In this document: piece by piece, positions 5,737-41,559 of the stretch
Layout: the number at the start of each line of letters is the position of its first letter
Numbering within the stretch: position 1 is the stretch's first letter
Origin: Escherichia phage DN1
Length of the DNA: 41,559 nt
Reading direction: 5' to 3' (one strand)
Sequence record: MF374379.1
Program-made: the position numbers and the translations under genes
The notes under the pieces: model-generated
Databases searched by the model: none
Told to the model about the DNA's origin: nothing
Seen by the model: the letters and a program-made list of their open reading frames with translations, nothing else

Positions 5737-5745
5737 GGGATGTTT

Positions 5746-7599: not shown

Positions 7600-7610
7600 C
7601 GGGAGGCGCT

Positions 7611-7964: not shown

Positions 7965-7975
7965 AAGGGGGATGT

Positions 7976-8946: not shown

Positions 8947-8953
8947 GGACGCT

Positions 8954-9694
8954 ATGCCTGTACCAAATCCTACAATGCCGGTGAAAGGTGCCGGGACCAC
9001 CCTGTGGGTTTATAAGGGGAGCGGTGACCCTTACGCGAATCCGCTTTCAGACGTTGACTGGTCGCGTCTGGCAAAAGTTAAAGACCTGACGCCCGGCGAA
9101 CTGACCGCTGAGTCCTATGACGACAGCTATCTCGATGATGAAGATGCAGACTGGACTGCGACCGGGCAGGGGCAGAAATCTGCCGGAGATACCAGCTTCA
9201 CGCTGGCGTGGATGCCCGGAGAGCAGGGGCAGCAGGCGCTGCTGGCGTGGTTTAATGAAGGCGATACCCGTGCCTATAAAATCCGCTTCCCGAACGGCAC
9301 GGTCGATGTGTTCCGTGGCTGGGTCAGCAGTATCGGTAAGGCGGTGACGGCGAAGGAAGTGATCACCCGCACGGTGAAAGTCACCAATGTGGGACGTCCG
9401 TCGATGGCAGAAGATCGCAGCACGGTAACAGCGGCAACCGGCATGACCGTGACGCCTGCCAGCACCTCGGTGGTGAAAGGGCAGAGCACCACGCTGACCG
9501 TGGCCTTCCAGCCGGAGGGCGTAACCGACAAGAGCTTTCGTGCGGTGTCTGCGGATAAAACAAAAGCCACCGTGTCGGTCAGTGGTATGACCATCACCGT
9601 GAACGGCGTTGCTGCAGGCAAGGTCAACATTCCGGTTGTATCCGGTAATGGTGAGTTTGCTGCGGTTGCAGAAATTACCGTCACCGCCAGTTAA
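8954..9694 (+). CDS. V: Major tail tube protein V
   Basis: [36 protein letters not shown]..., with a C-terminal Ig-like region; ORF track starts 10 codons upstream at 8924. Confidence 0.9.
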
Positions 9695-9709
9695 TCCGGA
9701 GAGTCAGCG

Positions 9710-10132
9710 ATGTTCCTGAAAACCGAATCATTTGAACATAACGGTGTGACCGTCACGCTTTCTGAACTGTCAGCCCTGCAGCGCATTGAGCATCTCGCCC
9801 TGATGAAACGGCAGGCAGAACAGGCGGAGTCAGACAGCAACCGGAAGTTTACTGTGGAAGACGCCATCAGAACCGGCGCGTTTCTGGTGGCGATGTCCCT
9901 GTGGCATAACCATCCGCAGAAGACGCAGATGCCGTCCATGAATGAAGCCGTTAAACAGATTGAGCAGGAAGTGCTTACCACCTGGCCCACGGAGGCAATT
10001 TCTCATGCTGAAAACGTGGTGTACCGGCTGTCTGGTATGTATGAGTTTGTGGTGAATAATGCCCCTGAACAGACAGAGGACGCCGGGCCCGCAGAGCCTG
10101 TTTCTGCGGGAAAGTGTTCGACGGTGAGCTGA
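9710..10132 (+). CDS. G: Tail assembly chaperone G
   Basis: 140-aa ORF directly upstream of the tape measure gene; lambda G. Confidence 0.9.
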   Translation: MFLKTESFEHNGVTVTLSELSALQRIEHLALMKRQAEQAESDSNRKFTVEDAIRTGAFLVAMSLWHNHPQKTQMPSMNEAVKQIEQEVLTTWPTEAISHAENVVYRLSGMYEFVVNNAPEQTEDAGPAEPVSAGKCSTVS

Positions 10133-10548
10133 GTTTTGCCCTGAAACTGGCGCGTGAGATGGGGCGACCCGACTGGCGTGCCATGCTTGCCGGGATGTCA
10201 TCCACGGAGTATGCCGACTGGCACCGCTTTTACAGTACCCATTATTTTCATGATGTTCTGCTGGATATGCACTTTTCCGGGCTGACGTACACCGTGCTCA
10301 GCCTGTTTTTCAGCGATCCGGATATGCATCCGCTGGATTTCAGTCTGCTGAACCGGCGCGAGGCTGACGAAGAGCCTGAAGATGATGTGCTGATGCAGAA
10401 AGCGGCAGGGCTTGCCGGAGGTGTCCGCTTTGGCCCGGACGGGAATGAAGTTATCCCCGCTTCCCCGGATGTGGCGGACATGACGGAGGATGACGTAATG
10501 CTGATGACAGTATCAGAAGGGATCGCAGGAGGAGTCCGGTATGGCTGA
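10114..10548 (+). CDS. T: T frame of the G-T tail assembly chaperone, made by programmed -1 frameshift from G
   Basis: ORF in the -1 frame overlapping the G 3' end; slippery heptamer GGGAAAG at 10108..10114; conserved G/GT arrangement ahead of the tape measure gene. Confidence 0.8.
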   Translation: MFDGELSFALKLAREMGRPDWRAMLAGMSSTEYADWHRFYSTHYFHDVLLDMHFSGLTYTVLSLFFSDPDMHPLDFSLLNRREADEEPEDDVLMQKAAGLAGGVRFGPDGNEVIPASPDVADMTEDDVMLMTVSEGIAGGVRYG

Positions 10549-13102
10549 ACCGGTAGGCGATCTGGTCGTTGATTTGAGTCTGGATGCGGCCAGATTTGAC
10601 GAGCAGATGGCCAGAGTCAGGCGTCATTTTTCTGGTACGGAAAGTGATGCGAAAAAAACAGCGGCAGTCGTTGAACAGTCGCTGAGCCGACAGGCGCTGG
10701 CTGCACAGAAAGCGGGGATTTCCGTCGGGCAGTATAAAGCCGCCATGCGTATGCTGCCTGCACAGTTCACCGACGTGGCCACGCAGCTTGCAGGCGGGCA
10801 AAGTCCGTGGCTGATCCTGCTGCAACAGGGGGGGCAGGTGAAGGACTCCTTCGGCGGGATGATCCCCATGTTCAGGGGGCTTGCCGGTGCGATCACCCTG
10901 CCGATGGTGGGGGCCACCTCGCTGGCGGTGGCGACCGGTGCGCTGGCGTATGCCTGGTATCAGGGCAACTCAACCCTGTCCGATTTCAACAAAACGCTGG
11001 TCCTTTCCGGCAATCAGGCGGGACTGACGGCAGATCGTATGCTGGTCCTGTCCAGAGCCGGGCAGGCGGCAGGGCTGACGTTTAACCAGACCAGCGAGTC
11101 ACTCAGCGCACTGGTTAAGGCGGGGGTAAGCGGTGAGGCTCAGATTGCGTCCATCAGCCAGAGTGTGGCGCGTTTCTCCTCTGCATCCGGCGTGGAGGTG
11201 GACAAGGTCGCTGAAGCCTTCGGGAAGCTGACCACAGACCCGACGTCGGGGCTGACGGCGATGGCTCGCCAGTTCCATAACGTGTCGGCGGAGCAGATTG
11301 CGTATGTTGCTCAGTTGCAGCGTTCCGGCGATGAAGCCGGGGCATTGCAGGCGGCGAACGAGGCCGCAACGAAAGGGTTTGATGACCAGACCCGCCGCCT
11401 GAAAGAGAACATGGGCACGCTGGAGACCTGGGCAGACAGGACTGCGCGGGCATTCAAATCCATGTGGGATGCGGTGCTGGATATTGGTCGTCCTGATACC
11501 GCGCAGGAGATGCTGATTAAGGCAGAGGCTGCGTATAAGAAAGCAGACGACATCTGGAATCTGCGCAAGGATGATTATTTTGTTAACGATGAAGCGCGGG
11601 CGCGTTACTGGGATGATCGTGAAAAGGCCCGTCTTGCGCTTGAAGCCGCCCGAAAGAAGGCTGAGCAGCAGACTCAACAGGACAAAAATGCGCAGCAGCA
11701 GAGCGATACCGAAGCGTCACGGCTGAAATATACCGAAGAGGCGCAGAAGGCTTACGAACGGCTGCAGACGCCGCTGGAGAAATATACCGCCCGTCAGGAA
11801 GAACTGAACAAGGCACTGAAAGACGGGAAAATCCTGCAGGCGGATTACAACACGCTGATGGCGGCGGCGAAAAAGGATTATGAAGCGACGCTGAAAAAGC
11901 CGAAACAGTCCAGCGTGAAGGTGTCTGCGGGCGATCGTCAGGAAGACAGTGCTCATGCTGCCCTGCTGACGCTTCAGGCAGAACTCCGGACGCTGGAGAA
12001 GCATGCCGGAGCAAATGAGAAAATCAGCCAGCAGCGCCGGGATTTGTGGAAGGCGGAGAGTCAGTTCGCGGTACTGGAGGAGGCGGCGCAACGTCGCCAG
12101 CTGTCTGCACAGGAGAAATCCCTGCTGGCGCATAAAGATGAGACGCTGGAGTACAAACGCCAGCTGGCTGCACTTGGCGACAAGGTTACGTATCAGGAGC
12201 GCCTGAACGCGCTGGCGCAGCAGGCGGATAAATTCGCACAGCAGCAACGGGCAAAACGGGCCGCCATTGATGCGAAAAGCCGGGGGCTGACTGACCGGCA
12301 GGCAGAACGGGAAGCCACGGAACAGCGCCTGAAGGAACAGTATGGCGATAATCCGCTGGCGCTGAATAACGTCATGTCAGAGCAGAAAAAGACCTGGGCG
12401 GCTGAAGACCAGCTTCGCGGGAACTGGATGGCAGGCCTGAAGTCCGGCTGGAGTGAGTGGGAAGAGAGCGCCACGGACAGTATGTCGCAGGTAAAAAGTG
12501 CAGCCACGCAGACCTTTGATGGTATTGCACAGAATATGGCGGCGATGCTGACCGGCAGTGAGCAGAACTGGCGCAGCTTCACCCGTTCCGTGCTGTCCAT
12601 GATGACAGAAATTCTGCTTAAGCAGGCAATGGTGGGGATTGTCGGGAGTATCGGCAGCGCCATTGGCGGGGCTGTTGGTGGCGGCGCATCCGCGTCAGGC
12701 GGTACAGCCATTCAGGCCGCTGCGGCGAAATTCCATTTTGCAACCGGAGGATTTACGGGAACCGGCGGCAAATATGAGCCAGCGGGGATTGTTCACCGTG
12801 GTGAGTTTGTCTTCACGAAGGAGGCAACCAGCCGGATTGGCGTGGGGAATCTTTACCGGCTGATGCGCGGCTATGCCACCGGCGGTTATGTCGGTACACC
12901 GGGCAGCATGGCAGACAGCCGGTCGCAGGCGTCCGGGACGTTTGAGCAGAATAACCATGTGGTGATTAACAACGACGGCACGAACGGGCAGATAGGTCCG
13001 GCTGCTCTGAAGGCGGTGTATGACATGGCCCGCAAGGGTGCCCGTGATGAAATTCAGACACAGATGCGTGATGGTGGCCTGTTCTCCGGAGGTGGACGAT
13101 GA
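10541..13102 (+). CDS. H: Tail tape measure protein H
   Basis: 853-aa ORF, coiled-coil and Ala/Gln-rich, at the lambda H position. Confidence 0.95.
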   Translation: MAEPVGDLVVDLSLDAARFDEQMARVRRHFSGTESDAKKTAAVVEQSLSRQALAAQKAGISVGQYKAAMRMLPAQFTDVATQLAGGQSPWLILLQQGGQVKDSFGGMIPMFRGLAGAITLPMVGATSLAVATGALAYAWYQGNSTLSDFNKTLVLSGNQAGLTADRMLVLSRAGQAAGLTFNQTSESLSALVKAGVSGEAQIASISQSVARFSSASGVEVDKVAEAFGKLTTDPTSGLTAMARQFHNVSAEQIAYVAQLQRSGDEAGALQAANEAATKGFDDQTRRLKENMGTLETWADRTARAFKSMWDAVLDIGRPDTAQEMLIKAEAAYKKADDIWNLRKDDYFVNDEARARYWDDREKARLALEAARKKAEQQTQQDKNAQQQSDTEASRLKYTEEAQKAYERLQTPLEKYTARQEELNKALKDGKILQADYNTLMAAAKKDYEATLKKPKQSSVKVSAGDRQEDSAHAALLTLQAELRTLEKHAGANEKISQQRRDLWKAESQFAVLEEAAQRRQLSAQEKSLLAHKDETLEYKRQLAALGDKVTYQERLNALAQQADKFAQQQRAKRAAIDAKSRGLTDRQAEREATEQRLKEQYGDNPLALNNVMSEQKKTWAAEDQLRGNWMAGLKSGWSEWEESATDSMSQVKSAATQTFDGIAQNMAAMLTGSEQNWRSFTRSVLSMMTEILLKQAMVGIVGSIGSAIGGAVGGGASASGGTAIQAAAAKFHFATGGFTGTGGKYEPAGIVHRGEFVFTKEATSRIGVGNLYRLMRGYATGGYVGTPGSMADSRSQASGTFEQNNHVVINNDGTNGQIGPAALKAVYDMARKGARDEIQTQMRDGGLFSGGGR

Positions 13103-13428
13103 AGACCTTCCGCTGGAAAGTGAAACCCGGTATGGATGTGGCTTCGGTCCCTTCTGTAAGAAAGGTGCGCTTTGGTGATGGCTATTCTCAGCGAGCGCCT
13201 GCCGGGCTGAATGCCAACCTGAAAACGTACAGCGTGACGCTTTCTGTCCCCCGTGAGGAGGCCACGGTACTGGAGTCGTTTCTGGAAGAGCACGGGGGCT
13301 GGAAATCCTTTCTGTGGACGCCGCCTTATGAGTGGCGGCAGATAAAGGTGACCTGCGCAAAATGGTCGTCGCGGGTCAGTATGCTGCGTGTTGAGTTCAG
13401 CGCAGAGTTTGAACAGGTGGTGAACTGA
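13099..13428 (+). CDS. M: Tail tip protein M
   Basis: 109-aa ORF MKTFRWKVKPGMDVASVPSVRKVRFGDGYSQRAP. Confidence 0.9.
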   Translation: MKTFRWKVKPGMDVASVPSVRKVRFGDGYSQRAPAGLNANLKTYSVTLSVPREEATVLESFLEEHGGWKSFLWTPPYEWRQIKVTCAKWSSRVSMLRVEFSAEFEQVVN

Positions 13429-14126
13429 TGCAGGATATCCGGCAGGAAACACTGAATGAATGCACCCGTGCGGAGCAGTCGGCCAGCGTGGTGCTCTGGG
13501 AAATCGACCTGACAGAGGTCGGTGGAGAACGTTATTTTTTCTGTAATGAGCAGAACGAAAAAGGTGAGCCGGTCACCTGGCAGGGGCGACAGTATCAGCC
13601 GTATCCCATTCAGGGGAGCGGTTTTGAACTGAATGGCAAAGGCACCAGTACGCGCCCCACGCTGACGGTTTCTAACCTGTACGGTATGGTCACCGGGATG
13701 GCGGAAGATATGCAGAGTCTGGTCGGCGGAACGGTGGTCCGGCGTAAGGTTTACGCCCGTTTTCTGGATGCGGTGAACTTCGTCAACGGAAACAGTTACG
13801 CCGATCCGGAGCAGGAGGTGATCAGCCGCTGGCGCATTGAGCAGTGCAGCGAACTGAGCGCGGTGAGTGCCTCCTTTGTACTGTCCACGCCGACGGAAAC
13901 GGATGGCGCTGTTTTTCCGGGACGTATCATGCTGGCCAACACCTGCACCTGGACCTATCGCGGTGACGAGTGCGGTTATAGCGGTCCGGCTGTCGCGGAT
14001 GAATATGACCAGCCAACGTCCGATATCACGAAGGATAAATGCAGCAAATGCCTGAGCGGTTGTAAGTTCCGCAATAACGTCGGCAACTTTGGCGGCTTCC
14101 TTTCCATTAACAAACTTTCGCAGTAA
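13428..14126 (+). CDS. L: Tail tip protein L
   Basis: 232-aa ORF at the lambda L position with a C-terminal Cys cluster. Confidence 0.9.
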   Translation: MQDIRQETLNECTRAEQSASVVLWEIDLTEVGGERYFFCNEQNEKGEPVTWQGRQYQPYPIQGSGFELNGKGTSTRPTLTVSNLYGMVTGMAEDMQSLVGGTVVRRKVYARFLDAVNFVNGNSYADPEQEVISRWRIEQCSELSAVSASFVLSTPTETDGAVFPGRIMLANTCTWTYRGDECGYSGPAVADEYDQPTSDITKDKCSKCLSGCKFRNNVGNFGGFLSINKLSQ

Positions 14127-14131
14127 ATCCC

Positions 14132-24861: not shown

Positions 24862-25902
24862 ATGGCTCACCGCCCACGCTGGACATTGTCGCAAGTCACA
24901 GAATTATTTGAAAAACCGTTGCTGGATCTGCTGTTTGAAGCGCAGCAGGTGCATCGCCAGCATTTCGATCCTCGTCAGGTGCAGGTCAGCACGTTGCTGT
25001 CGATTAAGACCGGAGCTTGTCCGGAAGATTGCAAATACTGCCCGCAAAGCTCGCGCTACAAAACCGGGCTGGAAGCCGAGCGGTTGATGGAAGTTGAACA
25101 GGTGCTGGAGTCGGCGCGCAAAGCGAAAGCGGCAGGATCGACGCGCTTCTGTATGGGCGCGGCGTGGAAGAATCCCCACGAACGCGATATGCCGTACCTG
25201 GAACAAATGGTGCAGGGGGTAAAAGCGATGGGGCTGGAGGCGTGTATGACGCTGGGCACGTTGAGTGAATCTCAGGCGCAGCGCCTCGCGAACGCCGGGC
25301 TGGATTACTACAACCACAACCTGGACACCTCGCCGGAGTTTTACGGCAATATCATCACCACACGCACTTATCAGGAACGCCTCGATACGCTGGAAAAAGT
25401 GCGCGATGCCGGGATCAAAGTCTGTTCTGGCGGCATTGTGGGCTTAGGCGAAACGGTAAAAGATCGCGCCGGATTATTGCTGCAACTGGCAAACCTGCCG
25501 ACGCCGCCGGAAAGCGTGCCAATCAACATGCTGGTGAAGGTGAAAGGCACGCCGCTTGCCGATAACGATGATGTCGATGCCTTTGATTTTATTCGCACCA
25601 TTGCGGTCGCGCGGATCATGATGCCAACCTCTTACGTGCGCCTTTCTGCCGGACGCGAGCAGATGAACGAACAGACTCAGGCGATGTGCTTTATGGCAGG
25701 CGCAAACTCGATTTTCTACGGTTGCAAACTGCTGACCACGCCGAATCCGGAAGAAGATAAAGACCTGCAACTGTTCCGCAAACTGGGGCTAAATCCGCAG
25801 CAAACTGCCGTGCTGGCGGGCGATAACGAACAACAGCAGCGTCTGGAACAGGCACTGATGACCCCGGACACTGACGAATATTACAACGCGGCAGCACTAT
25901 GA
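24862..25902 (+). CDS. bioB: Biotin synthase BioB (radical SAM)
   Basis: 346 aa, [25 protein letters not shown]; CxxxCxxC motif (CPEDCKYC). Confidence 0.95.
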
Positions 25903-27053
25903 GCTGGCAGGATAAAATCAACGCGGCCCTCGATGCGCGGCGTGCTGCCGATGCCCTGCGTCGCCGTTATCCAGTGGCGCAAGGAGCAGGACGCTGGCTG
26001 GTGGCGGACGATCGCCAGTATCTGAACTTTTCCAGTAACGATTATTTAGGTTTAAGCCATCATCCGCAAATTATCCGTGCCTGGAAGCAGAGTGCGGAGC
26101 AATTTGGCGTCGGTAGCGGCGGCTCCGGTCACGTCAGCGGTTATAGCGTGGCACATCAGGCGCTGGAAGAAGAACTGGCCGAGTGGCTGGGCTATTCGCG
26201 GGCACTGCTGTTTATCTCTGGTTTTGCCGCTAATCAGGCGGTCATTGCCGCGATGATGGCGAAAGAGGACCGTATTGTTGCCGACCGGCTTAGCCATGCC
26301 TCATTGCTGGAGGCTGCCAGTTTAAGCCCGTCGCAGCTTCGCCGTTTTGTTCATAACGATGTCACTCATCTGGCGCGACTGCTTGCTTCCCCCTGTCCGG
26401 GGCAGCAAATGGTGGTGACAGAAGGCGTGTTCAGCATGGACGGCGATAGTGCGCCACTGGCGGAAATCCAGCAGGTAACGCAACAGCACAATGGCTGGTT
26501 GATGGTCGATGATGCCCACGGCACGGGCGTTATCGGGGAGCAGGGGCGCGGCAGCTGCTGGCTGCAAAAGGTAAAACCAGAATTGCTGGTAGTGACTTTT
26601 GGCAAAGGATTTGGCGTCAGCGGGGCAGCGGTGCTTTGCTCCAGTACGGTGGCGGATTATCTGCTGCAATTCGCCCGCCACCTTATCTACAGCACCAGTA
26701 TGCCGCCCGCTCAGGCGCAGGCATTACGTGCGTCGCTGGCGGTCATTCGCAGTGATGAGGGTGATGCACGGCGCGAAAAACTGGCGGCACTCATTACGCG
26801 TTTTCGTGCCGGAGTACAGGATTTGCCGTTTACGCTTGCTGATTCATGCAGCGCCATCCAGCCATTGATTGTCGGTGATAACAGCCGTGCGTTACAACTG
26901 GCAGAAAAACTGCGCCAGCAAGGCTGCTGGGTCACGGCGATTCGCCCGCCAACCGTACCCGCTGGTACTGCGCGACTGCGCTTAACGCTAACCGCTGCGC
27001 ATGAAATGCAGGATATCGACCGTCTGCTGGAGGTGCTGCATGGCAACGGTTAA
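25899..27053 (+). CDS. bioF: 8-amino-7-oxononanoate synthase BioF
   Basis: 384 aa, [26 protein letters not shown]; start overlaps the bioB stop. Confidence 0.95.
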
Positions 27054-31095: not shown

Positions 31096-31205
31096 GAAAA
31101 CAGCCTGATGCGCTACGCTTATCAGGCCTACATTTTCTCCGCAATATATTGAATTTGCGCGGTTTGTAGGCCGGATAAGGCGTTCACGCCGCATCCGGCA
31201 TAAAC
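31096..31205. repeat. REP (repetitive extragenic palindromic) elements downstream of uvrB
   Basis: GCCTGATGCGCTACGCTTATCAGGCCTAC and GCCGGATAAGGCGTTCACGCCGCATCCGGC are typical E. coli REP palindromes. Confidence 0.75.
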
Positions 31206-32424: not shown

Positions 32425-32555
32425 TCGGCATAACCACTAAACACTCTAGCCTCTGCACCTGGGTCAACTGATACGGTGCTTTGGCCGTGACAATGCTCGT
32501 AAAGATTGCCACCAGGGCGAAGGAAGAAATGACTTCGCCTCCCGTATCTGGAAAG
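32425..32555 (+). ncRNA. Molybdenum cofactor (Moco) riboswitch in the moaA leader
   Basis: Structured 5' leader just before the moaA start, with segments CCTCTGCACCTGGG, GGCCGTGACAA, GCCACCAGGGCGAAGGAAG and CCTCCCG; boundaries approximate. Confidence 0.55.
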
Positions 32556-32561
32556 GTGTAC

Positions 32562-32895
32562 ATGGCTTCACAACTGACTGATGCATTTGCGCGTAAGTTT
32601 TACTACTTGCGCCTGTCGATTACCGATGTGTGTAACTTTCGTTGCACCTACTGCCTGCCGGATGGGTACAAGCCGAGCGGCGTCACCAATAAAGGCTTTC
32701 TAACCGTCGATGAAATTCGCCGGGTTACGCGCGCCTTCGCCAGTCTGGGCACCGAAAAAGTGCGCCTGACAGGCGGTGAGCCGTCTTTACGCCGCGACTT
32801 TACCGATATCATCGCCGCTGTGCGAGAAAATGACGCTATCCGCCAGATTGCGGTCACCACCAATGGTTACCGTCTGGAACGCGATGTGGCTTTGG
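32562..32895 (+). pseudogene. moaA: 5' fragment of moaA (about 110 codons), truncated at the substitution junction
   Basis: [41 protein letters not shown] (radical SAM CxxxCxxC); MoaA-like sequence ends after ...[12 protein letters not shown] and the frame runs into unrelated sequence. Confidence 0.8.
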
Positions 32896-32981
32896 CGCAT
32901 GACGCGTCGAGGTGCTTATCTTCTCGATCGCTGTCTTGTAGCTGCAATTCGCGCCATCCCCAAAACCACTCAAGTTCTGGT

Positions 32982-33020
32982 CTCAACGGTTAGGTTGAGA
33001 GTCCGTCGATGTTAAAGAGC
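32982..33020 (-). promoter_or_regulatory. nutL: nutL-like site (boxA + boxB hairpin) of the heterologous immunity region
   Basis: On the minus strand: boxA-like GCTCTTTAACA, then hairpin CTCAAC-CTAACC-GTTGAG, downstream of the PL-like promoter. Confidence 0.6.
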
Positions 33021-33062
33021 CTGCCAATCTGTTCCGTTTGGCTTCCAGCGTCCTGCTGATGG

Positions 33063-33100
33063 CTTAAATTTAAGACTTCTTAATTTATTGGTCAAGTGCA
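33063..33100 (-). promoter_or_regulatory. PL-like promoter with OL operator (leftward transcription)
   Basis: Minus strand reads TTGACC-17 nt-TAAATT; overlapping 18-bp operator-like palindrome ATTTAAGACTTCTTAATT resembles the P22/21-type half-sites seen in OR. Confidence 0.6.
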
Positions 33101-33159
33101 TTTTTGAAGAAAACTTAATTTTATGGGCGTGAATTTAGTTTGTCTTTGATTTTTAACGG

Positions 33160-33185
33160 GAAATAAAAAAGGGGCGAAAGCCCCT
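33160..33185 (-). terminator. Intrinsic terminator just past the cI stop
   Basis: Minus strand: GGGGCTTTCGCCCC hairpin followed by TTTTTTATTT. Confidence 0.65.
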
Positions 33186-33835
33186 TAAGGAAGGTTTGCT
33201 AGCTTGGCATCAACGACAACGCCAATGATTTTACAGTTCCCATTGATTTCAATCATTGGGTATTGTGGATTGAGTGGTTTCAGGAATTTTCTACCGGCAT
33301 CAATAACTAACTTTTTGAATGTCGCCTCGTTTTCTCCTTCAAGTTTGGCGACTACCAGCTTTCCATTACGTGGTTCGACTTCTGGGTCGACGAGAATAAT
33401 CATCCCCTCAGGAATACTCAGTCCTGCCGGGGCAGTCATTGAATCGCCTTTAACGTCGAGCCAAAAAGAGTCTTCAGAACAATCTACCGTTGTGTCGTAC
33501 CAGTTATCTATTGCACGCCTATGATATGGCTCTACAGCTTCCATCCAACATCCTGCGCTTACCCAACTAATTAGAGGATACGAACCTCTTGGATCATGCC
33601 TGCTGTGATAGGCAATGTTTGAAAGACTATCCTCTCCTTTCAACAGGTAATCAGGGGAGCACTGCAAAGCCTTGGCTAAGGCCAATAGGTTTTCGCCATT
33701 GGGCTCAGTTTCAGATCGCTCCCATTGGGAAATAGCAACATTAGACACGCCAACCATCTTGCCAAGGGCAGCCTGCCTAATCTTGAGTTCTTTTCTGCGA
33801 GCGCGAATACGCTCACCCATCAGTTGTGTATTCAT
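33185..33835 (-). CDS. cI: Immunity repressor of the P22 c2 / phage 21 cI type (LexA-like autocleavable)
   Basis: 216 aa, MNTQLMGERIRARRKELKIRQAALGKMVGVSNVAISQWERSE (HTH) with a C-terminal S24 peptidase-like region (GDSM); near-identical to the P22 C2 sequence as I recall it, with scattered substitutions. Confidence 0.9.
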   Translation of the reverse strand: MNTQLMGERIRARRKELKIRQAALGKMVGVSNVAISQWERSETEPNGENLLALAKALQCSPDYLLKGEDSLSNIAYHSRHDPRGSYPLISWVSAGCWMEAVEPYHRRAIDNWYDTTVDCSEDSFWLDVKGDSMTAPAGLSIPEGMIILVDPEVEPRNGKLVVAKLEGENEATFKKLVIDAGRKFLKPLNPQYPMIEINGNCKIIGVVVDAKLANLP

Positions 33836-33915
33836 AGTTAAGACATCTTAAATAAACTTGACTTAAGATTCCTTTGGTGGATAATTTAAGTGTTCTTTAA
33901 TTTCGGAGCGAGTCT
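33836..33915. promoter_or_regulatory. Right operator region with divergent PRM and PR
   Basis: Operator-like palindromes AGTTAAGACATCTTAAAT and AATTTAAGTGTTCTTTAATT; PR -35 TTGACT (33858..33863) and -10 GATAAT (33880..33885). Confidence 0.7.
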
Positions 33916-34101
33916 ATGTACAAAAAAGATGTTATTGACCACTTCGGAACCCAGCGTGCTGTTGCTAAAGCACTAGGCATTAGCGATGCAGCAGTCTCTC
34001 AGTGGAAAGAAGTTATCCCAGAGAAAGACGCCTATCGATTGGAAATCGTTACAGCTGGCGCCCTGAAGTATCAAGAAAGTGCTTACCGCCAAGCGGCATA
34101 A
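33916..34101 (+). CDS. cro: Cro (P22/21 type)
   Basis: 61 aa, MYKKDVIDHFGTQRAVAKALGISDAAVSQWKEVIPEKDAYRLEIVTAGALKYQESAYRQAA. Confidence 0.9.
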   Translation: MYKKDVIDHFGTQRAVAKALGISDAAVSQWKEVIPEKDAYRLEIVTAGALKYQESAYRQAA

Positions 34102-34107
34102 GCAAAT

Positions 34108-34148
34108 TGCTCTTTAACAGTTCTGGCCTTTCACCTCTAACCGGGTGA
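34108..34148 (+). promoter_or_regulatory. nutR: nutR-like site (boxA TGCTCTTTAACA and boxB hairpin CACCTCTAACCGGGTG)
   Basis: Immediately downstream of cro; boxA resembles lambda CGCTCTTACACA; boxB loop CTAACC matches the nutL-like loop. Confidence 0.65.
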
Positions 34149-34216
34149 GCAAACATCAGCGGCAAATCCATTGGGTGTGCCGCTATAACTCAATATCAAT
34201 ATAGGTAAATTAACAA

Positions 34217-34516
34217 ATGGCACAAGCAAGCTACAGCAAGCCAACACAGCGAGAAATTGATCGCGCTGAAACTGATTTACTCATCAACCTGTCAACGCTT
34301 ACCCAGCGCGGTCTGGCAAAGATGATTGGCTGTCATGAATCGAAGATAAGCAGAACGGACTGGAGATTTATTGCTTCGGTCTTGTGTGCTTTCGGAATGG
34401 CATCAGACATCAGTCCGATTAGCAGGGCTTTTAAGTATGCGCTTGATGGACTCACAAAGAAAAAACGCCCGGTGTGCAAGACCGAGCGTTCTGAACAAAT
34501 CCAGATGGAGTTCTGA
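34217..34516 (+). CDS. cII: CII-type lysogeny activator, hybrid (heterologous N-terminus, lambda-type C-terminus)
   Basis: 99 aa; N-terminal MAQASYSKPTQREIDRAETDLLINLSTLTQRGLAKMIGCHESKISR is not lambda CII; C-terminal ...TERSEQIQMEF is the lambda CII ending. Confidence 0.85.
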   Translation: MAQASYSKPTQREIDRAETDLLINLSTLTQRGLAKMIGCHESKISRTDWRFIASVLCAFGMASDISPISRAFKYALDGLTKKKRPVCKTERSEQIQMEF

Positions 34517-34540
34517 GGTCATTACTGGATCTATCAACAG
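34462..34540 (-). ncRNA. oop: Possible oop antisense RNA overlapping the cII 3' end
   Basis: Placed by collinearity with lambda; the terminator hairpin here (CGGT-CTTGCAC-ACCG then T-tract on the minus strand) is weaker than in lambda. Confidence 0.35.
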
Positions 34541-34548
34541 GAGTCATT

Positions 34549-35448
34549 ATGACAAATACAGCAAAAATACTCAACTTCGGCAGAGGTAACTTTGCCGGAC
34601 AGGAGCGTAATGTGGCAGATCTCGATGATGGTTACGCCAGACTATCAAATATGCTGCTTGAGGCTTATTCGGGCGCAGATCTGACCAAGCGACAGTTTAA
34701 AGTGCTGCTTGCCATTCTGCGTAAAACCTATGGGTGGAATAAACCAATGGACAGAATCACCGATTCTCAACTTAGCGAGATTACAAAGTTACCTGTCAAA
34801 CGGTGCAATGAAGCCAAGTTAGAACTCGTCAGAATGAATATTATCAAGCAGCAAGGCGGCATGTTTGGACCAAATAAAAACATCTCAGAATGGTGTATCC
34901 CTCAAAACGAGGGAAAATCCCCTAAAACGAGGGATAAAACATCCCTCAAATTGGGGGATTGCTATCCCTCAAAACAGGGGGACACAAAAGACACTATTAC
35001 AAAAGAAAAAAGAAAAGATTATTCGTCAGAGAATTCTGGCGAATCCTCTGACCAGCCAGAAAACGACCTTTCTGTGGTGAAACCGGATGCTGCAATTCAG
35101 AGCGGCAGCAAGTGGGGGACAGCAGAAGACCTGACCGCCGCAGAGTGGATGTTTGACATGGTGAAGACTATCGCACCATCAGCCAGAAAACCGAATTTTG
35201 CTGGGTGGGCTAACGATATCCGCCTGATGCGTGAACGTGACGGACGTAACCACCGCGACATGTGTGTGCTGTTCCGCTGGGCATGCCAGGACAACTTCTG
35301 GTCCGGTAACGTGCTGAGCCCGGCCAAACTCCGCGATAAGTGGACCCAACTCGAAATCAACCGTAACAAGCAACAGGCAGGCGTGACAGCCAGCAAACCA
35401 AAACTCGACCTGACAAACACAGACTGGATTTACGGGGTGGATCTATGA
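34549..35448 (+). CDS. O: Replication initiator O
   Basis: 299 aa, MTNTAKILNFGRGNFAGQERNVADLDDGYARLSNMLLEAY; contains the ori iterons. Confidence 0.95.
   Translation: MTNTAKILNFGRGNFAGQERNVADLDDGYARLSNMLLEAYSGADLTKRQFKVLLAILRKTYGWNKPMDRITDSQLSEITKLPVKRCNEAKLELVRMNIIKQQGGMFGPNKNISEWCIPQNEGKSPKTRDKTSLKLGDCYPSKQGDTKDTITKEKRKDYSSENSGESSDQPENDLSVVKPDAAIQSGSKWGTAEDLTAAEWMFDMVKTIAPSARKPNFAGWANDIRLMRERDGRNHRDMCVLFRWACQDNFWSGNVLSPAKLRDKWTQLEINRNKQQAGVTASKPKLDLTNTDWIYGVDL
34896..35030. other. ori: Replication origin: four ~18-bp iterons plus adjacent A/T-rich region inside O
   Basis: ATCCCTCAAAACGAGGGA, AATCCCCTAAAACGAGGGA, ATCCCTCAAATTGGGGGA, ATCCCTCAAAACAGGGGGA, then AAAAGAAAAAAGAAAAGATTATT. Confidence 0.9.
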
Positions 35449-36146
35449 AAAACATCGCCGCACAGATGGTTAACTTTGACCGTGAGCAGATGCGTCGGAT
35501 CGCCAACAACATGCCGGAACAGTACGACGAAAAGCCGCAGGTACAGCAGGTAGCGCAGATCATCAACGGTGTGTTCAGCCAGTTACTGGCAACTTTCCCG
35601 GCGAGCCTGGCTAACCGTGACCAGAACGAAGTGAACGAAATCCGTCGCCAGTGGGTTCTGGCTTTTCGGGAAAACGGGATCACCACGATGGAACAGGTTA
35701 ACGCAGGAATGCGCGTAGCCCGTCGGCAGAATCGACCATTTCTGCCATCACCCGGGCAGTTTGTTGCATGGTGCCGGGAAGAAGCATCCGTTACCGCCGG
35801 ACTGCCAAACGTCAGCGAGCTGGTTGATATGGTTTACGAGTATTGCCGGAAGCGAGGCCTGTATCCGGATGCGGAGTCTTATCCGTGGAAATCAAACGCG
35901 CACTACTGGCTGGTTACCAACCTGTATCAGAACATGCGGGCCAATGCGCTTACTGATGCGGAATTACGCCGTAAGGCCGCAGATGAGCTTGTCCATATGA
36001 CTGCGAGAATTAACCGTGGTGAGGCGATCCCTGAACCAGTAAAACAACTTCCTGTCATGGGCGGTAGACCTCTAAATCGTGCACAGGCTCTGGCGAAGAT
36101 CGCAGAAATCAAAGCTAAGTTCGGACTGAAAGGAGCAAGTGTATGA
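35445..36146 (+). CDS. P: Replication protein P (DnaB helicase loader)
   Basis: 233 aa, [44 protein letters not shown]. Confidence 0.95.
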
Positions 36147-36946
36147 CGGGCAAAGAGGCAATTATTCATTACCTGGGGACGCATAATAGCTTCTGTGCGC
36201 CGGACGTTGCCGCGCTAACAGGCGCAACAGTAACCAGCATAAATCAGGCCGCGGCTAAAATGGCACGGGCAGGTCTTCTGGTTATCGAAGGTAAGGTCTG
36301 GCGAACGGTGTATTACCGGTTTGCTACCAGGGAAGAACGGGAAGGAAAGATGAGCACGAACCTGATGAACAAACTGGATACGATTGGATTCGACAACAAA
36401 AAAGACCTGCTTATCTCGGTGGGCGATTTGGTTGATCGTGGTGCAGAGAACGTTGAATGCCTGGAATTAATCACATTCCCCTGGTTCAGAGCTGTACGTG
36501 GAAACCATGAGCAAATGATGATTGATGGCTTATCAGAGCGTGGAAACGTTAATCACTGGCTGCTTAATGGCGGTGGCTGGTTCTTTAATCTCGATTACGA
36601 CAAAGAAATTCTGGCTAAAGCTCTTGCCCATAAAGCAGATGAACTTCCGTTAATCATCGAACTGGTGAGCAAAGATAAAAAATATGTTATCTGCCACGCC
36701 GATTATCCCTTTGACGAATACGAGTTTGGAAAGCCAGTTGATCATCAGCAGGTAATCTGGAACCGCGAACGAATCAGCAACTCACAAAACGGGATCGTGA
36801 AAGAAATCAAAGGCGCGGACACGTTCATCTTTGGTCATACGCCAGCAGTGAAACCACTCAAGTTTGCCAACCAAATGTATATCGATACCGGCGCAGTGTT
36901 CTGCGGAAACCTAACATTGATTCAGGTACAGGGAGAAGGCGCATGA
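36143..36946 (+). CDS. Ren-NinI fusion ORF from a nin5-type deletion (Ren N-terminal ~74 aa joined in frame to the Ser/Thr phosphatase NinI lacking its first motif)
   Basis: N-terminus [30 protein letters not shown] (Ren) switches at ...MSTNL|MNKLDTIGF... to phosphatase sequence with GDLVDRG and GNHE motifs; no ninB-ninH genes between P and Q. Confidence 0.85.
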
Positions 36947-37566
36947 GACTCGAAAGCGTAGCTAAATTTCATTCGCCAAAAAGCCCGATGATGAGCGACT
37001 CACCACGGGCCACGGCTTCTGACTCTCTTTCCGGTACTGATGTGATGGCTGCTATGGGGATGGCGCAATCACAAGCCGGATTCGGTATGGCTGCATTCTG
37101 CGGTAAGCACGAACTCAGCCAGAACGACAAACAAAAGGCTATCAACTATCTGATGCAATTTGCACACAAGGTATCGGGGAAATACCGTGGTGTGGCATAT
37201 CTTGAAGGAAATACTAAGGCAAAGGTACTGCAAGTGCTCGCAACATTCGCTTATGCGGATTATTGCCGTAGTGCCGCGACGCCGGGGGCAAGATGCAGAG
37301 ATTGCCATGGTACAGGCCGTGCGGTTGATATTGCCAAAACAGAGCTGTGGGGGAGAGTTGTCGAGAAAGAGTGCGGAAGATGCAAAGGCGTCGGCTATTC
37401 AAGGATGCCAGCAAGCGCAGCATATCGCGCTGTGACGATGCTAATCCCAAACCTTACCCAACCCACCTGGTCACGCACTGTTAAGCCGCTGTATGACGCT
37501 CTGGTGGTGCAATGCCACAAAGAAGAGTCAATCGCAGACAACATTTTGAATGCGGTCACACGTTAG
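36943..37566 (+). CDS. Q: Late antiterminator Q
   Basis: 207 aa, [28 protein letters not shown]...; Cys-rich zinc-binding region CRDCHGTG...CGRCKG. Confidence 0.95.
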
Positions 37567-37614
37567 CAGCATGATTGCCACGGATGGCAACATATTAACG
37601 GCATGATATTGACT

Positions 37615-37655
37615 TATTGAATAAAATTGGGTAAATTTGACTCAACGATGGGTTA
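37615..37655 (+). promoter_or_regulatory. Late promoter pR' with qut region
   Basis: TTGACT (37619..37624), 17-nt spacer, TAAATT (37642..37647); immediately downstream of Q. Confidence 0.65.
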
Positions 37656-37779
37656 ATTCGCTCGTTGTGGTAGTGAGATGAAAAGAGGCGGCGCTTACTA
37701 CCGATTCCGCCTAGTTGGTCACTTCGACGTATCGTCTGGAACTCCAACCATCGCAGGCAGAGAGGTCTGCAAAATGCAA

Positions 37780-37838
37780 TCCCGAAACAGTTCGCAGGTA
37801 ATAGTTAGAGCCTGCATAACGGTTTCGGGATTTTTTAT
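37780..37838 (+). terminator. tR' intrinsic terminator (3' end of the 6S transcript)
   Basis: Hairpin TCCCGAAAC...GGTTTCGGGA followed by TTTTTTAT. Confidence 0.8.
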
Positions 37839-38242
37839 ATCTGCACAACAGGTAAGAGCATTGAGTCGATAATCGTGAAGAGTCGGCGAGCCTGGTTAGC
37901 CAGTGCTCTTTCCGTTGTGCTGAATTAAGCGAATACCGGAAGCAGAACCGGATCACCAAATGCGTACAGGCGTCATCGCCGCCCAGCAACAGCACAACCC
38001 AAACTGAGCCGTAGCCACTGTCTGTCCTGAATTCATTAGTAATAGTTACGCTGCGGCCTTTTACACATGACCTTCGTGAAAGCGGGTGGCAGGAGGTCGC
38101 GCTAACAACCTCCTGCCGTTTTGCCCGTGCATATCGGTCACGAACAAATCTGATTACTAAACACAGTAGCCTGGATTTGTTCTATCAGTAATCGACCTTA
38201 TTCCTAATTAAATAGAGCAAATCCCCTTATTGGGGGTAAGAC

Positions 38243-38566
38243 ATGAAGATGCCAGAAAAACATGACCTGTTGGCCGCCATTCTCGCGGCAAAGGAACAAG
38301 GCATCGGGGCAATCCTTGCGTTTGCAATGGCGTACCTTCGCGGCAGATATAATGGCGGTGCGTTTACAAAAACAGTAATCGACGCAACGATGTGCGCCAT
38401 TATCGCCTGGTTCATTCGTGACCTTCTCGACTTCGCCGGACTAAGTAGCAATCTCGCTTATATAACGAGCGTGTTTATCGGCTACATCGGTACTGACTCG
38501 ATTGGTTCGCTTATCAAACGCTTCGCTGCTAAAAAAGCCGGAGTAGAAGATGGTAGAAATCAATAA
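38243..38566 (+). CDS. S: Holin/antiholin S (dual start, Met1 and Met3)
   Basis: 107 aa, [41 protein letters not shown]; three TM segments; no amber codon in the frame. Confidence 0.95.
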
Positions 38567-39026
38567 TCAACGTAAGGCGTTCCTCGATATGCTGGCGTGG
38601 TCGGAGGGAACTGATAACGGACGTCAGAAAACCAGAAATCATGGTTATGACGTCATTGTAGGCGGAGAGCTATTCACTGATTACTCCGATCACCCTCGCA
38701 AACTTGTCACGCTAAACCCAAAACTCAAATCAACAGGCGCCGGACGCTACCAGCTTCTTTCCCGTTGGTGGGATGCCTACCGCAAGCAGCTTGGCCTGAA
38801 AGACTTCTCTCCGAAAAGTCAGGACGCTGTGGCATTGCAGCAGATTAAGGAGCGTGGCGCTTTACCTATGATTGATCGTGGTGATATCCGTCAGGCAATC
38901 GACCGTTGCAGCAATATCTGGGCTTCACTGCCGGGCGCTGGTTATGGTCAGTTCGAGCATAAGGCTGACAGCCTGATTGCAAAATTCAAAGAAGCGGGCG
39001 GAACGGTCAGAGAGATTGATGTATGA
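38550..39026 (+). CDS. R: Endolysin R (lytic transglycosylase)
   Basis: 158 aa, [39 protein letters not shown]. Confidence 0.95.
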
Positions 39027-39484
39027 GCAGAGTCACCGCGATTATCTCCGCTCTGGTTATCTGCATCATCGTCTGCCTGTCATGGGCTGTTAATCATTAC
39101 CGTGATAACGCCATTACCTACAAAGCCCAGCGCGACAAAAATGCCAGAGAACTGAAGCTGGCGAACGCGGCAATTACTGACATGCAGATGCGTCAGCGTG
39201 ATGTTGCTGCGCTCGATGCAAAATACACGAAGGAGTTAGCTGATGCTAAAGCTGAAAATGATGCTCTGCGTGATGATGTTGCCGCTGGTCGTCGTCGGTT
39301 GCACATCAAAGCAGTCTGTCAGTCAGTGCGTGAAGCCACCACCGCCTCCGGCGTGGATAATGCAGCCTCCCCCCGACTGGCAGACACCGCTGAACGGGAT
39401 TATTTCACCCTCAGAGAGAGGCTGATCACTATGCAAAAACAACTGGAAGGAACCCAGAAGTATATTAATGAGCAGTGCAGATAG
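39023..39484 (+). CDS. Rz: Spanin inner-membrane subunit Rz
   Basis: 153 aa; N-terminal TM segment then coiled coil. Confidence 0.9.
39243..39425 (+). CDS. Rz1: Spanin outer-membrane lipoprotein Rz1, embedded in Rz in the +1 frame
   Basis: 60 aa, [24 protein letters not shown] (lipobox) with a Pro-rich C-terminus; entirely inside Rz. Confidence 0.85.
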
Positions 39485-39515
39485 AGCTGACCATATCGAT
39501 GGGCAACTCATGCAA

Positions 39516-39809
39516 TTATTTTGAGCAATACACACGCGCTTCCAGCGGAGTATAAATGCCTAAAGTAATAAAACCGAGCAATCCATTTACGAATGTTTGC
39601 TGGGTTTCTGTTTTAACAACATTTTCTGCGCCGCCACAAATTTTAGCTGCATCGACAGTTTTCTTCTGCCCAATTCCAGAAACGAAGAAATGATGGGTGA
39701 TGGTTTCCTTTGGTGCTACTGCTGCCGGTTTGTTTTGAACAGTAAACGTCTGTTGAGCACATCCTGTAATAAGCAGGGCCAGCGCAGTAGCGAGTAGCAT
39801 TTTTTTCAT
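39516..39809 (-). CDS. bor: Bor lipoprotein (serum-resistance-associated)
   Basis: 97 aa, MKKMLLATALALLITGCAQQTF (lipobox LITGC). Confidence 0.9.
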   Translation of the reverse strand: MKKMLLATALALLITGCAQQTFTVQNKPAAVAPKETITHHFFVSGIGQKKTVDAAKICGGAENVVKTETQQTFVNGLLGFITLGIYTPLEARVYCSK

Positions 39810-40098
39810 GGTGTTATTCCCGATGCTTTTTGAAGTTCGCAGAATCGTATGTGTAGAAAATTAAACAAACCCTAAACAATGAGTTGAAATTTCATATTGT
39901 TAATATTTATTAATGTATGTCAGGTGCGATGAATCGTCATTGTATTCCCGGATTAACTATGTCCACAGCCCTGACGGGGAACTTCTCTGCGGGAGTGTCC
40001 GGGAATAATTAAAACGATGCACACAGGGTTTAGCGCGTACACGTATTGCATTATGCCAACGCCCCGGTGCTGACACGGAAGAAACCGGACGTTATGAT

Positions 40099-40632
40099 TT
40101 AGCGTGGAAAGATTTGTGTAGTGTTCTGAATGCTCTCAGTAAATAGTAATGAATTATCAAAGGTATAGTAATATCTTTTATGTTCATGGATATTTGTAAC
40201 CCATCGGAAAACTCCTGCTTTAGCAAGATTTTCCCTGTATTGCTGAAATGTGATTTCTCTTGATTTCAACCTATCATAGGACGTTTCTATAAGATGCGTG
40301 TTTCTTGAGAATTTAACATTTACAACCTTTTTAAGTCCTTTTATTAACACGGTGTTATCGTTTTCTAACACGATGTGAATATTATCTGTGGCTAGATAGT
40401 AAATATAATGTGAGACGTTGTGACGTTTTAGTTCAGAATAAAACAATTCACAGTCTAAATCTTTTCGCACTTGATCGAATATTTCTTTAAAAATGGCAAC
40501 CTGAGCCATTGGTAAAACCTTCCATGTGATACGAGGGCGCGTAGTTTGCATTATCGTTTTTATCGTTTCAATCTGGTCTGACCTCCTTGTGTTTTGTTGA
40601 TGATTTATGTCAAATATTAGGAATGTTTTCAC
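40099..40632 (-). CDS. Uncharacterised right-end protein (matches the position of lambda p78)
   Basis: 177-aa ORF in an AT-rich segment; no motif I can assign. Confidence 0.6.
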
Positions 40633-40794
40633 TTAATAGTATTGGTTGCGTAACAAAGTGCGGTCCTGCTGGCATTCTGGAGGGAAATACAACCGACAGA
40701 TGTATGTAAGGCCAACGTGCTCAAATCTTCATACAGAAAGATTTGAAGTAATATTTTAACCGCTAGATGAAGAGCAAGCGCATGGAGCGACAAA

Positions 40795-41001
40795 ATGAAT
40801 AAAGAACAATCTGCTGATGATCCCTCCGTGGATCTGATTCGTGTAAAAAATATGCTTAATAGCACCATTTCTATGAGTTACCCTGATGTTGTAATTGCAT
40901 GTATAGAACATAAGGTGTCTCTGGAAGCATTCAGAGCAATTGAGGCAGCGTTGGTGAAGCACGATAATAATATGAAGGATTATTCCCTGGTGGTTGACTG
41001 A
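40795..41001 (+). CDS. Small uncharacterised right-end ORF (matches the position of lambda p79)
   Basis: 68-aa [45 protein letters not shown]. Confidence 0.5.
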
Positions 41002-41165
41002 TCACCATAACTGCTAATCATTCAAACTATTTAGTCTGTGACAGAGCCAACACGCAGTCTGTCACTGTCAGGAAAGTGGTAAAACTGCAACTCAATTACT
41101 GCAATGCCCTCGTAATTAAGTGAATTTACAATATCGTCCTGTTCGGAGGGAAGAACGCGGGATGT

Positions 41166-41360
41166 TCATTCTTCATCACTTTTAATTGATGTATATGCTC
41201 TCTTTTCTGACGTTAGTCTCCGACGGCAGGCTTCAATGACCCAGGCTGAGAAATTCCCGGACCCTTTTTGCTCAAGAGCGATGTTAATTTGTTCAATCAT
41301 TTGGTTAGGAAAGCGGATGTTGCGGGTTGTTGTTCTGCGGGTTCTGTTCTTCGTTGACAT
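41166..41360 (-). CDS. Small ribbon-helix-helix-like ORF near cosR (hypothetical)
   Basis: 64 aa; RNIRFPNQMIEQINIALEQKGSGNFSAWVIEACRRRL fits a beta-strand / helix / helix pattern typical of Arc/CopG/ParD-type domains. Expression unknown. Confidence 0.4.
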   Translation of the reverse strand: MSTKNRTRRTTTRNIRFPNQMIEQINIALEQKGSGNFSAWVIEACRRRLTSEKRAYTSIKSDEE

Positions 41361-41499
41361 GAGGTTGCCCCGTATTCAGTGTCGCTGATTTGTATTGTCT
41401 GAAGTTGTTTTTACGTTAAGTTGATGCAGATCAATTAATACGATACCTGCGTCATAATTGATTATTTGACGTGGTTTGATGGCCTCCACGCACGTTGTG

Positions 41500-41559
41500 A
41501 TATGTAGATGATAATCATTATCACTTTACGGGTCCTTTCCGGTGATCCGACAGGTTACG
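41500..41559. other. cos: Right cos end (cosQ region and terminal bases)
   Basis: Window ends ...ACGGGTCCTTTCCGGTGATCCGACAGGTTACG, which I recognise as the right end of mature lambda DNA. Confidence 0.85.

Follow-up and report, generated by a model that had tools for sequence, protein, structure and literature searches.

The window, that is, the whole 41,559-bp stretch of DNA that was analysed, contains a lambdoid phage immunity switch comprising the repressor gene cI, cro and cII, together with their operators, promoters and nut sites. The nut coordinates were transferred from the phage 21 record OL657228 by subtracting 1070 from the record position, across sequence without mismatches. The features of this region, from left to right, are:

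32981 to 33000, minus strand: nutL stem-loop, phage 21 specificity (annotation transferred from OL657228)
33013 to 33020, minus strand: boxA-L, phage 21 specificity (annotation transferred from OL657228)
33067 to 33149, minus strand: OL region, with OL1 (33068 to 33085) and OL2 (33103 to 33120) from the operator pattern and OL3 (33132 to 33149) from the phage 21 annotation only
33095 to 33067, minus strand: pL (TTGACC-17-TAAATT), start site near 33060 (promoter scan)
33169 to 33186, minus strand: intrinsic terminator (AAGGGGCTTTCGCCCCTT hairpin and T run) immediately following the stop codon of cI (terminator scan and OL657228 annotation)
33185 to 33835, minus strand: cI of phage 21, 216 aa, LexA-like, with an N-terminal helix-turn-helix and a C-terminal S24 autocleavage domain
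33836 to 33901: OR region, with OR3 (33836 to 33853), OR2 (33861 to 33878) and OR1 (33884 to 33901), from the operator pattern and comparison with P22
33858 to 33885, plus strand: pR (TTGACT-16-GATAAT), overlapping OR2 and OR1 (promoter scan)
33916 to 34101, plus strand: cro of phage 21, 61 aa
34109 to 34116, plus strand: boxA-R (annotation transferred from OL657228)
34131 to 34148, plus strand: nutR stem-loop (annotation transferred from OL657228)
34217 to 34516, plus strand: cII of phage 21, 99 aa (Pfam Phage_CII, PF05269, 124.5 bits, residues 1-93)
34226 to 34239, minus strand: predicted CII-binding site of pRE, TTGC-N6-TTGC (GCAAGCTACAGCAA), inside the first cII codons
34492 to 34462, minus strand: terminator hairpin of the antisense oop RNA (scan)
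34574 to 34546: po-like promoter (scan)

The CI protein belongs to the LexA-like phage repressors (helix-turn-helix plus peptidase S24). Both domains were identified in Pfam (HTH_3, 61.8 bits; Peptidase_S24, 106 bits), and the Ala-Gly site and the Ser/Lys dyad are present. In the alignment to lambda CI, the Ala-Gly site falls on A111-G112, and the dyad residues, Ser in GDSMTAP and Lys in FKKL, fall on S149 and K192. A sequence-only reading of the window had described the repressor as near-identical to P22 C2, and the protein alignment agreed: 202 of 216 residues (93.5%) were identical in a gapless alignment, compared with 31% identity to lambda CI. Residues 17-53, which include the helix-turn-helix, are identical to those of P22 C2, and the closest solved structures are entries for the P22 C2 N-terminal domain (1adr, 2r1j and 3jxb).

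The same reading had likened Cro to P22 Cro, which it matches at 60 of 61 residues (98.4%), against 26% identity to lambda Cro. The Pfam match of Cro was to P22_Cro (96.9 bits), and its sole PDB match was P22 Cro (1rzs). P22-type operator half-sites had also been reported, and were recovered when the pattern ANTNAAGNNNNCTTNANT, allowing at most one mismatch, was searched across the 41.6 kb. Five matches were observed (33068, 33103, 33836, 33861 and 33884), all inside the immunity region, where the chance expectation was 0.73 and none of 100 shuffles reached five; OL3 did not match the pattern at this threshold. The OR region, the c2-cro intergenic region in P22, is identical to P22 at 76 of 80 positions, and OR1 is identical throughout. 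The P22-like recognition region, Cro and 18-bp operators lead us to predict that the operator specificity is the same, or nearly the same, as that of P22. Phage 21 and P22 immC are reported to share immunity specificity; a literature search for a statement to this effect returned nothing usable.

The resemblance in repressor, Cro and OR1 would be expected if the module came from Salmonella phage P22, as in a lambda immP22-type hybrid. However, the DNA comparison, covering c2-cro together with genes 24 and c1 on either side, refuted P22 as the source, and we consider this origin exceedingly improbable. The DNA identity to P22 is 83.6% and is confined to 33006 to 34119, with no P22 homology left of boxA-L or beyond cro on the right, and CII is only 22.5% identical to P22 C1. 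Phage 21, by contrast, is 100% identical over the whole region. The window from 32886 to 35027 aligned to phage 21 (OL657228) with 0 mismatches, including cI, cro, cII, OR/OL, nutR and the start of O, and 32900 to 34600 was 100% identical to the public records of phage 21, lambda imm21 and DE3. The sequence-only reading, which had recognised a heterologous module in lambda and had favoured the imm21 of coliphage 21 as its likeliest source, was correct on both points. We conclude with high confidence that the region is the coliphage 21 immunity switch, imm21, in the form carried by the lambda laboratory derivative DE3 (EcoRI-fragment b-region deletion, imm21, nin5).

Gene order, promoters, operators and nut sites all agree with those of phage 21, lambda imm21 and DE3 (OL657228, OM418625 and EU078592). 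The P22 immC region shares the repressor fold, C2 residues 17-53, a Cro that differs by one residue and the 18-bp P22-type operators, but it diverges by approximately 16% at the DNA level and differs in its antiterminator, nut regions and CII/C1, and the window has no immI/ant system. The lambda switch follows the same logic, with cI and cro diverging around a tripartite OR, a second tripartite OL at pL, cII downstream of nutR/tR1, pRE inside the cII start, an antisense oop RNA over the cII end, and an S24 autocleavage domain in CI with conserved Ala-Gly, Ser and Lys. In contrast to lambda, where the operator sequence differs, there is no rexA/rexB between cI and OL. No Rfam family was identified in the immunity region.

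From the lambda and P22 paradigms, CI21 dimers on OR1/OR2 and OL1/OL2 would shut off pR and pL while cI transcription was kept up from pRM, and Cro21 would occupy these operators in the opposite order of preference, committing the phage to lytic growth. CII21 is predicted to act at the pRE site within the start of its own gene, establishing repressor synthesis, and the putative antisense oop RNA would overlap the 3' end of cII. Prophage induction would probably proceed through RecA-stimulated self-cleavage of CI21 at the Ala-Gly site by the Ser/Lys S24 domain.

The CII protein can be assigned to the phage CII activators, as it contains the Phage_CII domain and the TTGC-N6-TTGC target is present. 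Overall identity to lambda CII is 37.5%, but the two proteins share their final 11 residues (TERSEQIQMEF), consistent with the earlier description of a non-lambda N-terminus and a lambda C-terminus. Two positions are relevant to how this composite gene arose:

34451 to 34481: natural mosaic boundary, where phage 21-specific sequence gives way to lambda-like sequence, in the end part of cII and inside the oop RNA terminator hairpin
34897 to 35027: exchange interval of the lineage in gene O (lambda 39034 to 39164), in the ori iteron region, from the SNP pattern

In a column-by-column comparison, identity to lambda was patchy over 34451 to 34480 and complete from 34481. The sequence-only reading had taken the composite CII as the resolution point of a lambda x 21 cross, with the right end of the substitution being a homologous crossover inside cII. 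The non-homology to lambda does stop within cII, where the imm21 non-homology block is classically taken to end on the right; however, phage 21 itself carries this exact cII and remains identical to the window for a further 510 bp, to 35027. The independent natural isolates HK629 and mEp235 also match the window through the cII stop codon to approximately 34560, with 98.3-98.6% identity, and a phage 21-specific allele is retained at 34896. A crossover in cII is thus quite unlikely, and this part of the earlier reading was not upheld. The composite cII is a native phage 21 gene, and its lambda-like tail is a mosaic joint that occurs naturally in phage 21 itself. The case serves as a caution against equating mosaic boundaries with crossover sites.

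Six genomes were compared across O-P-ren for their SNP pattern. Position 34896 is T in the window, phage 21, lambda imm21, lambda h434 imm21 and DE3, and C in lambda and lambda imm434. From 35028 rightwards, the window has the lambda allele at all 24 of the lambda/21 differences. The 21 allele at 34896 followed by lambda alleles from 35028 places the lambda x 21 exchange made in the laboratory within gene O, in the interval 34897 to 35027. The left bound of this interval is a single nucleotide, where the phage 21 allele could conceivably be the product of a chance mutation; the allele is common to phage 21 and all three imm21 hybrids and is absent from both lambda-type O genes. It has been reported that lambda imm21 hybrids bear extra phage 21 sequence beyond the immunity region (Feiss et al. 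2022, PMC9119081). The right-hand exchange point of DE3 matches that of the window. The DE3-lineage exchange point at the ori iterons differs from those of the two other sequenced imm21 hybrids: lambda imm21 (OM418625) retains phage 21 alleles to at least 35794, and lambda h434 imm21 (OM418627) carries phage 21 alleles in a patchy distribution.

The analysis of the remaining sequence showed that the whole 41,559-bp window is a cos-to-cos DE3 genome in which the int-to-N21 arm has been swapped for E. coli B DNA (ybhB-bio-uvrB-ybhK-moaA'). Positions 1 to 22845 and 32886 to 41559 aligned to DE3 with 0 mismatches. The lambda backbone that had been proposed was confirmed by the 99.98% identity of positions 1 to 21231 to lambda. 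The engineered features of DE3 are present: lambda 21232 to 26103 is deleted at an EcoRI site, with GAATTC at the joint, and the nin5 deletion creates a ren-ninI fusion ORF at 36143 to 36946, after which lambda homology restarts at lambda 43298. The base changes at lambda 44141/44143, also among these engineered features, are common to the window and DE3. No phage record was found that covered more than 56% of 19000 to 41559. A natural lambdoid phage or prophage with an imm21-type module, involving no laboratory construct, was considered, as such modules are common in nature; at least 80% of 33000 to 34450 is covered in 226 of 5426 complete E. coli genomes, and the module type occurs in the phages HK629, mEp235, phiv205-1 and Kapi1. 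However, these natural relatives reach only 98.3-99.4% identity, while both arms of the window are DE3 without mismatches, engineered deletions included. A natural origin was therefore rejected as having a negligible probability, and the window is regarded as a DE3 derivative.

The departure from DE3 lies at the left of the immunity module, in the following features:

22846 to 32885: E. coli B chromosomal substitution of 10,040 bp, running from attR and replacing the int-to-N21 arm
32885/32886: novel joint between truncated moaA and the DE3 pL leader, with a 5-bp microhomology, GTGGC, at 32886 to 32890

The substitution contains ybhB, bioA, bioBFCD, uvrB, ybhK, a Moco riboswitch (32430 to 32574) and the first 108 codons of moaA (moaA'); Rfam also identified the ES036 sRNA in the bacterial segment. 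The window from 19525 to 32890 matched BL21(DE3) (NC_012971.2) with 0 mismatches in 13,366 bp, and the bacterial segment showed 56 mismatches to K-12 MG1655, such that the host DNA is B-type. Chi sequences in the plus orientation are present within the substitution at 25997 and 30591.

At the joint, the BL21 alignment stops at 32890 and the DE3 alignment begins at 32886 (DE3 11407). As N21 lies at DE3 11092 to 11391, it is absent from the window; the GTGGC microhomology lies 15 nt upstream of the N21 start codon in DE3. The classical imm21 block pairs N21 with its cognate nut sites, and here nutL, boxA-L, boxA-R and nutR are present without N21. Compared with imm21 of phage 21 and DE3, 298 bp are also missing from the window at the left end of the 1,864-bp non-homology block, and the ral-to-int flank of lambda found in imm21 hybrids is absent. 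Lambda DNA thus flanks the module on the right only; on the left is E. coli B DNA, with no lambda ral or cIII. This left truncation, in which N21 was deleted and the pL leader joined to moaA, had been overlooked in the sequence-only reading.

The exact 28-nt joint sequence had no matches in IMG/VR viral contigs, JGI metagenome contigs or GTDB genome contigs, and none of the 5426 complete E. coli genomes spanned 32600 to 33200. The absence of the joint from every public collection searched would fit an assembly or chimera artefact, with no such molecule in existence. Against this, the 5 bp shared at the joint are too few for mistaken bridging by an assembler, the product spans cos to cos exactly at a packageable length (85.7% of that of lambda), and the topology, in which host DNA runs on from attR without a break, is exactly what excision of a classical lambda-bio phage would give. 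On these grounds, the artefact was down-weighted, and we regard it as unlikely.

The window is instead a lambda-bio-type specialised transducing genome, with an attR (POB') joint at approximately 22845, host DNA to 32890 and a single novel joint. As in the lambda bio transducing phages, the int-side arm has given way to host DNA that extends without interruption from attR through bio, and the short-microhomology novel joint and packageable size are shared. It differs from them in its parent, an int-disrupted DE3 prophage in E. coli B, in the length of the substitution, which continues through uvrB and ybhK into moaA, and in the removal of N, with growth predicted to depend on nin5 for N-independence. 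Illegitimate recombination at the GTGGC microhomology joined the pL leader to moaA, and in the same event N21 and the entire int-to-N arm, T7 gene 1 and lacI included, were lost in exchange for the 10,040 bp of host DNA. The loss of N21 would leave nutL and nutR without their cognate N, and nin5 would permit N-independent late gene expression.

The immunity module itself is already known. It is ordinary because it is the textbook imm21 substitution carried by DE3, a laboratory prophage lineage that is among those in widest use, and it is base-for-base equal to public records. The sole unusual point, and a modest side finding, is a DE3 derivative in which 10 kb of bio-uvrB DNA from E. coli B has taken the place of the left arm. 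A literature search for DE3-derived transducing phages identified nothing relevant. We give even chances that the window represents a viable, N-independent specialised transducing phage with bioABFCD, uvrB and ybhK intact and a working imm21 switch. Such a phage would have arisen in an E. coli B expression strain, where illegitimate recombination of the pL leader with moaA freed it from a DE3 prophage supposed to be locked in. If this is true, the retained switch would render the phage silent in DE3 lysogens, and it could infect non-lysogenic laboratory strains. The findings suggest that DE3 can yield a packageable bio-uvrB transducing derivative without T7 RNA polymerase and N, and such a genome would have a practical bearing on phage contamination and on the stability of DE3 expression strains.

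The open reading frames within 32975..34520, with the promoter elements of the immunity module, were as follows:

33185..33835, minus strand: 216-aa repressor, cI21 (Pfam HTH_3 and Peptidase_S24)
33916..34101: 61-aa Cro (Pfam P22_Cro)
34217..34516: 99-aa CII (Pfam Phage_CII)
33858..33885: promoter pR, TTGACT-16-GATAAT
33095..33067: promoter pL
34226..34239: CII target at pRE, TTGC-N6-TTGC

A sequence-only reading had described the repressor and Cro as nearly identical to P22 C2 and Cro, and protein alignment confirmed this (202/216 residues, 93.5%, without gaps, including all of residues 17-53, and 60/61 residues, respectively). Identity to lambda CI and lambda Cro was 31% and 26%. Among solved structures, the repressor is related to the P22 C2 N-terminal domain (1adr, 2r1j, 3jxb) and Cro to P22 Cro (1rzs). 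CII was 22.5% identical to P22 C1 and 37.5% identical to lambda CII, and its last 11 residues (TERSEQIQMEF) are those of lambda CII, consistent with the hybrid protein that had been proposed. The P22-type operators were likewise borne out: the pattern ANTNAAGNNNNCTTNANT, with at most one mismatch, matched the 41.6-kb window five times (0.73 expected by chance; five or more in 0 of 100 shuffles), exclusively in two clusters flanking cI (33068 and 33103; 33836, 33861 and 33884).

The repressor is annotated inconsistently in public records. It is given as 190 aa from an internal Met start in phage 21 (OL657228 34255..34827) and lambda imm21, which omits the first 26 residues, while P22 C2 matches the 216-aa frame end to end; the record of DE3, a laboratory lambda derivative, carries the full 216 aa. 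In lambda h434 imm21 (OM418627 3273..3632) the repressor is shorter still, annotated "due to sequence difference", probably through a clear-plaque mutation.

At the DNA level, region 32900..34600 was identical along its full length (megablast; 100% identity, 100% query coverage) to phage 21 (OL657228), lambda imm21 (OM418625) and DE3 (EU078592), compared to 83.7% identity over 65% for P22 and its relatives. In our own alignment, phage 21 had no mismatches to the window over 32886..35027, and a P22 origin was rejected, as P22 homology was confined to 33006..34119 at only 83.6%. Over the cI/c2 coding sequence, DNA identity was 81%, against 93.5% for the proteins. These alignments identify phage 21 as the source of the module, as the preference for imm21 had correctly anticipated. 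The module is also present at 98-99% identity in phages HK629, mEp235, phiv205-1 and Kapi1 (megablast, 32900..34600), and is widespread in nature: among 5426 complete E. coli genomes, 226 carry at least 80% of 33000..34450.

The switch elements were recognised by sequence and by identity to annotated phage 21 features, and their mode of action would be like that of the P22 immC and lambda switches. By this analogy, CI21 dimers on OR1/OR2 and OL1/OL2 would repress pR and pL and sustain pRM, Cro21 would oppose this action, and pRE would be fired by CII21 bound at its TTGC repeats. Prophage induction is predicted to proceed via RecA-stimulated CI21 self-cleavage at the conserved Ala-Gly, with the Ser/Lys dyad. 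The genome carries nutL and nutR without their N; the nin5 deletion should permit N-independent late expression.

Lambda homology returns in patches at 34451 and becomes complete at 34481, over the last 12 cII codons. A minus-strand terminator hairpin (34492..34462), interpreted as the 3' terminus of antisense oop RNA, coincides with this 34451..34481 stretch, with a po-like promoter upstream (34574..34546). The crossover had been placed inside cII; however, phage 21 itself carries this exact boundary and matches the window identically for a further 510 bp, by which comparison the cII boundary is not the product of a laboratory crossover. From 34481 to 36360, 25 positions distinguish phage 21 from lambda. 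The first of them, 34896 (lambda 39033; synonymous, O codon 116), is T in the window, as in phage 21, lambda imm21, lambda h434 imm21 and DE3, compared to C in lambda and lambda imm434; at the remaining 24, from 35028 onward, the window has the lambda base throughout. Because of these alleles, the exchange behind this lineage is placed between 34897 and 35027, in the ori iterons of gene O (lambda 39034..39164), with its left bound set by one nucleotide. Lambda imm21 has phage 21 alleles at 25/25 sites, and in lambda h434 imm21 they occur in patches, at 34896-35079 and then 35337-35349; together with the DE3 lineage, these represent three distinct right-hand exchange patterns in O and P (34896..35794). 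An exchange point in O agrees with the extra phage 21 sequence beyond the immunity region in lambda imm21 (Feiss et al. 2022, PMC9119081).

The window is a complete genome, cos to cos, of 85.7% of lambda length, and comprises two DE3 arms around E. coli DNA:

1..22845: left arm; cos, Nu1 through J, lom, b region up to attR (DE3 20081..42925, 0 mismatches)
10,040 bp between the arms, contiguous with attR: E. coli ybhB, bioA, bioBFCD, uvrB, ybhK, Moco riboswitch, moaA' (first 108 codons)
31124..31165, minus strand: ES036/CssrF sRNA match, between uvrB and ybhK
32430..32574, plus strand: intact Moco riboswitch (RF01055, 103.6 bits), upstream of truncated moaA
25997 (plus), 30591 (plus), 23242 (minus): Chi octamers GCTGGTGG, in the bacterial substitution
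32886..41559: right arm; pL leader, cI21, cro, cII, O, P, nin5 ren-ninI fusion, Q, S, R, Rz, cos (DE3 11407..20080, 0 mismatches)

The b region has the EcoRI-site deletion of lambda 21232..26103. Two base changes at 37198 and 37200 (lambda 44141/44143) fall at a lambda HindIII site, which was probably removed on purpose during construction of the vector lineage. S, R and Rz are intact, and the holin gene S (38243..38566) has no amber codon; DE3 genotype listings commonly include Sam7. The E. coli segment matches BL21(DE3) and other B strains exactly, against 56 mismatches to K-12 MG1655. Across the whole window, Chi was confined to this segment. The plus orientation is the active one for the lambda genome, and plus Chi sites at 25997 and 30591 would aid Red- Gam- growth in recA+ cells, as in the classical Chi-in-bio results. 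Transcripts from pL would cross moaA and the riboswitch antisense, then enter ybhK in sense.

The match to BL21 runs as far as 32890, and that to DE3 already starts at 32886; the left joint, from moaA to the pL leader, is therefore a 5-bp microhomology, GTGGC, which lies 15 nt ahead of the start codon of N21, the phage 21 antiterminator gene. Both parents also share the 11-mer CAATGGTTACC (window 32861..32871, DE3 11379..11389), which precedes GTGGC by 14 nt in moaA and 17 nt in DE3; only approximately 0.6% of random 125-bp window pairs share an 11-mer. The joint was matched nowhere in phage records, the 5426 E. coli genomes, IMG/VR, or JGI metagenome and GTDB contigs. Of the DE3 stretch non-homologous to lambda (11109..12972, 1,864 bp), the right-hand 1,565 bp are retained and N21 is absent, as are ral, cIII, kil, gam, bet, exo, xis, the split int, T7 gene 1 and lacI.

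The segments are arranged as in the classical lambda-bio specialised transducing genomes that arise by aberrant excision; packaging of a tandem duplication from cos to cos would yield an equivalent topology. The genome appears to be that of a specialised transducing phage of the lambda-bio type, derived from a DE3 lysogen of a B strain, with the int-to-N21 arm replaced. A literature search found no account of a DE3-derived bio-uvrB transducing genome. The module is a truncated imm21 member, without N21 and without the lambda left flank, and is neither P22-derived, nor a natural isolate, nor new; the transducing genome surrounding it is a modest curiosity.
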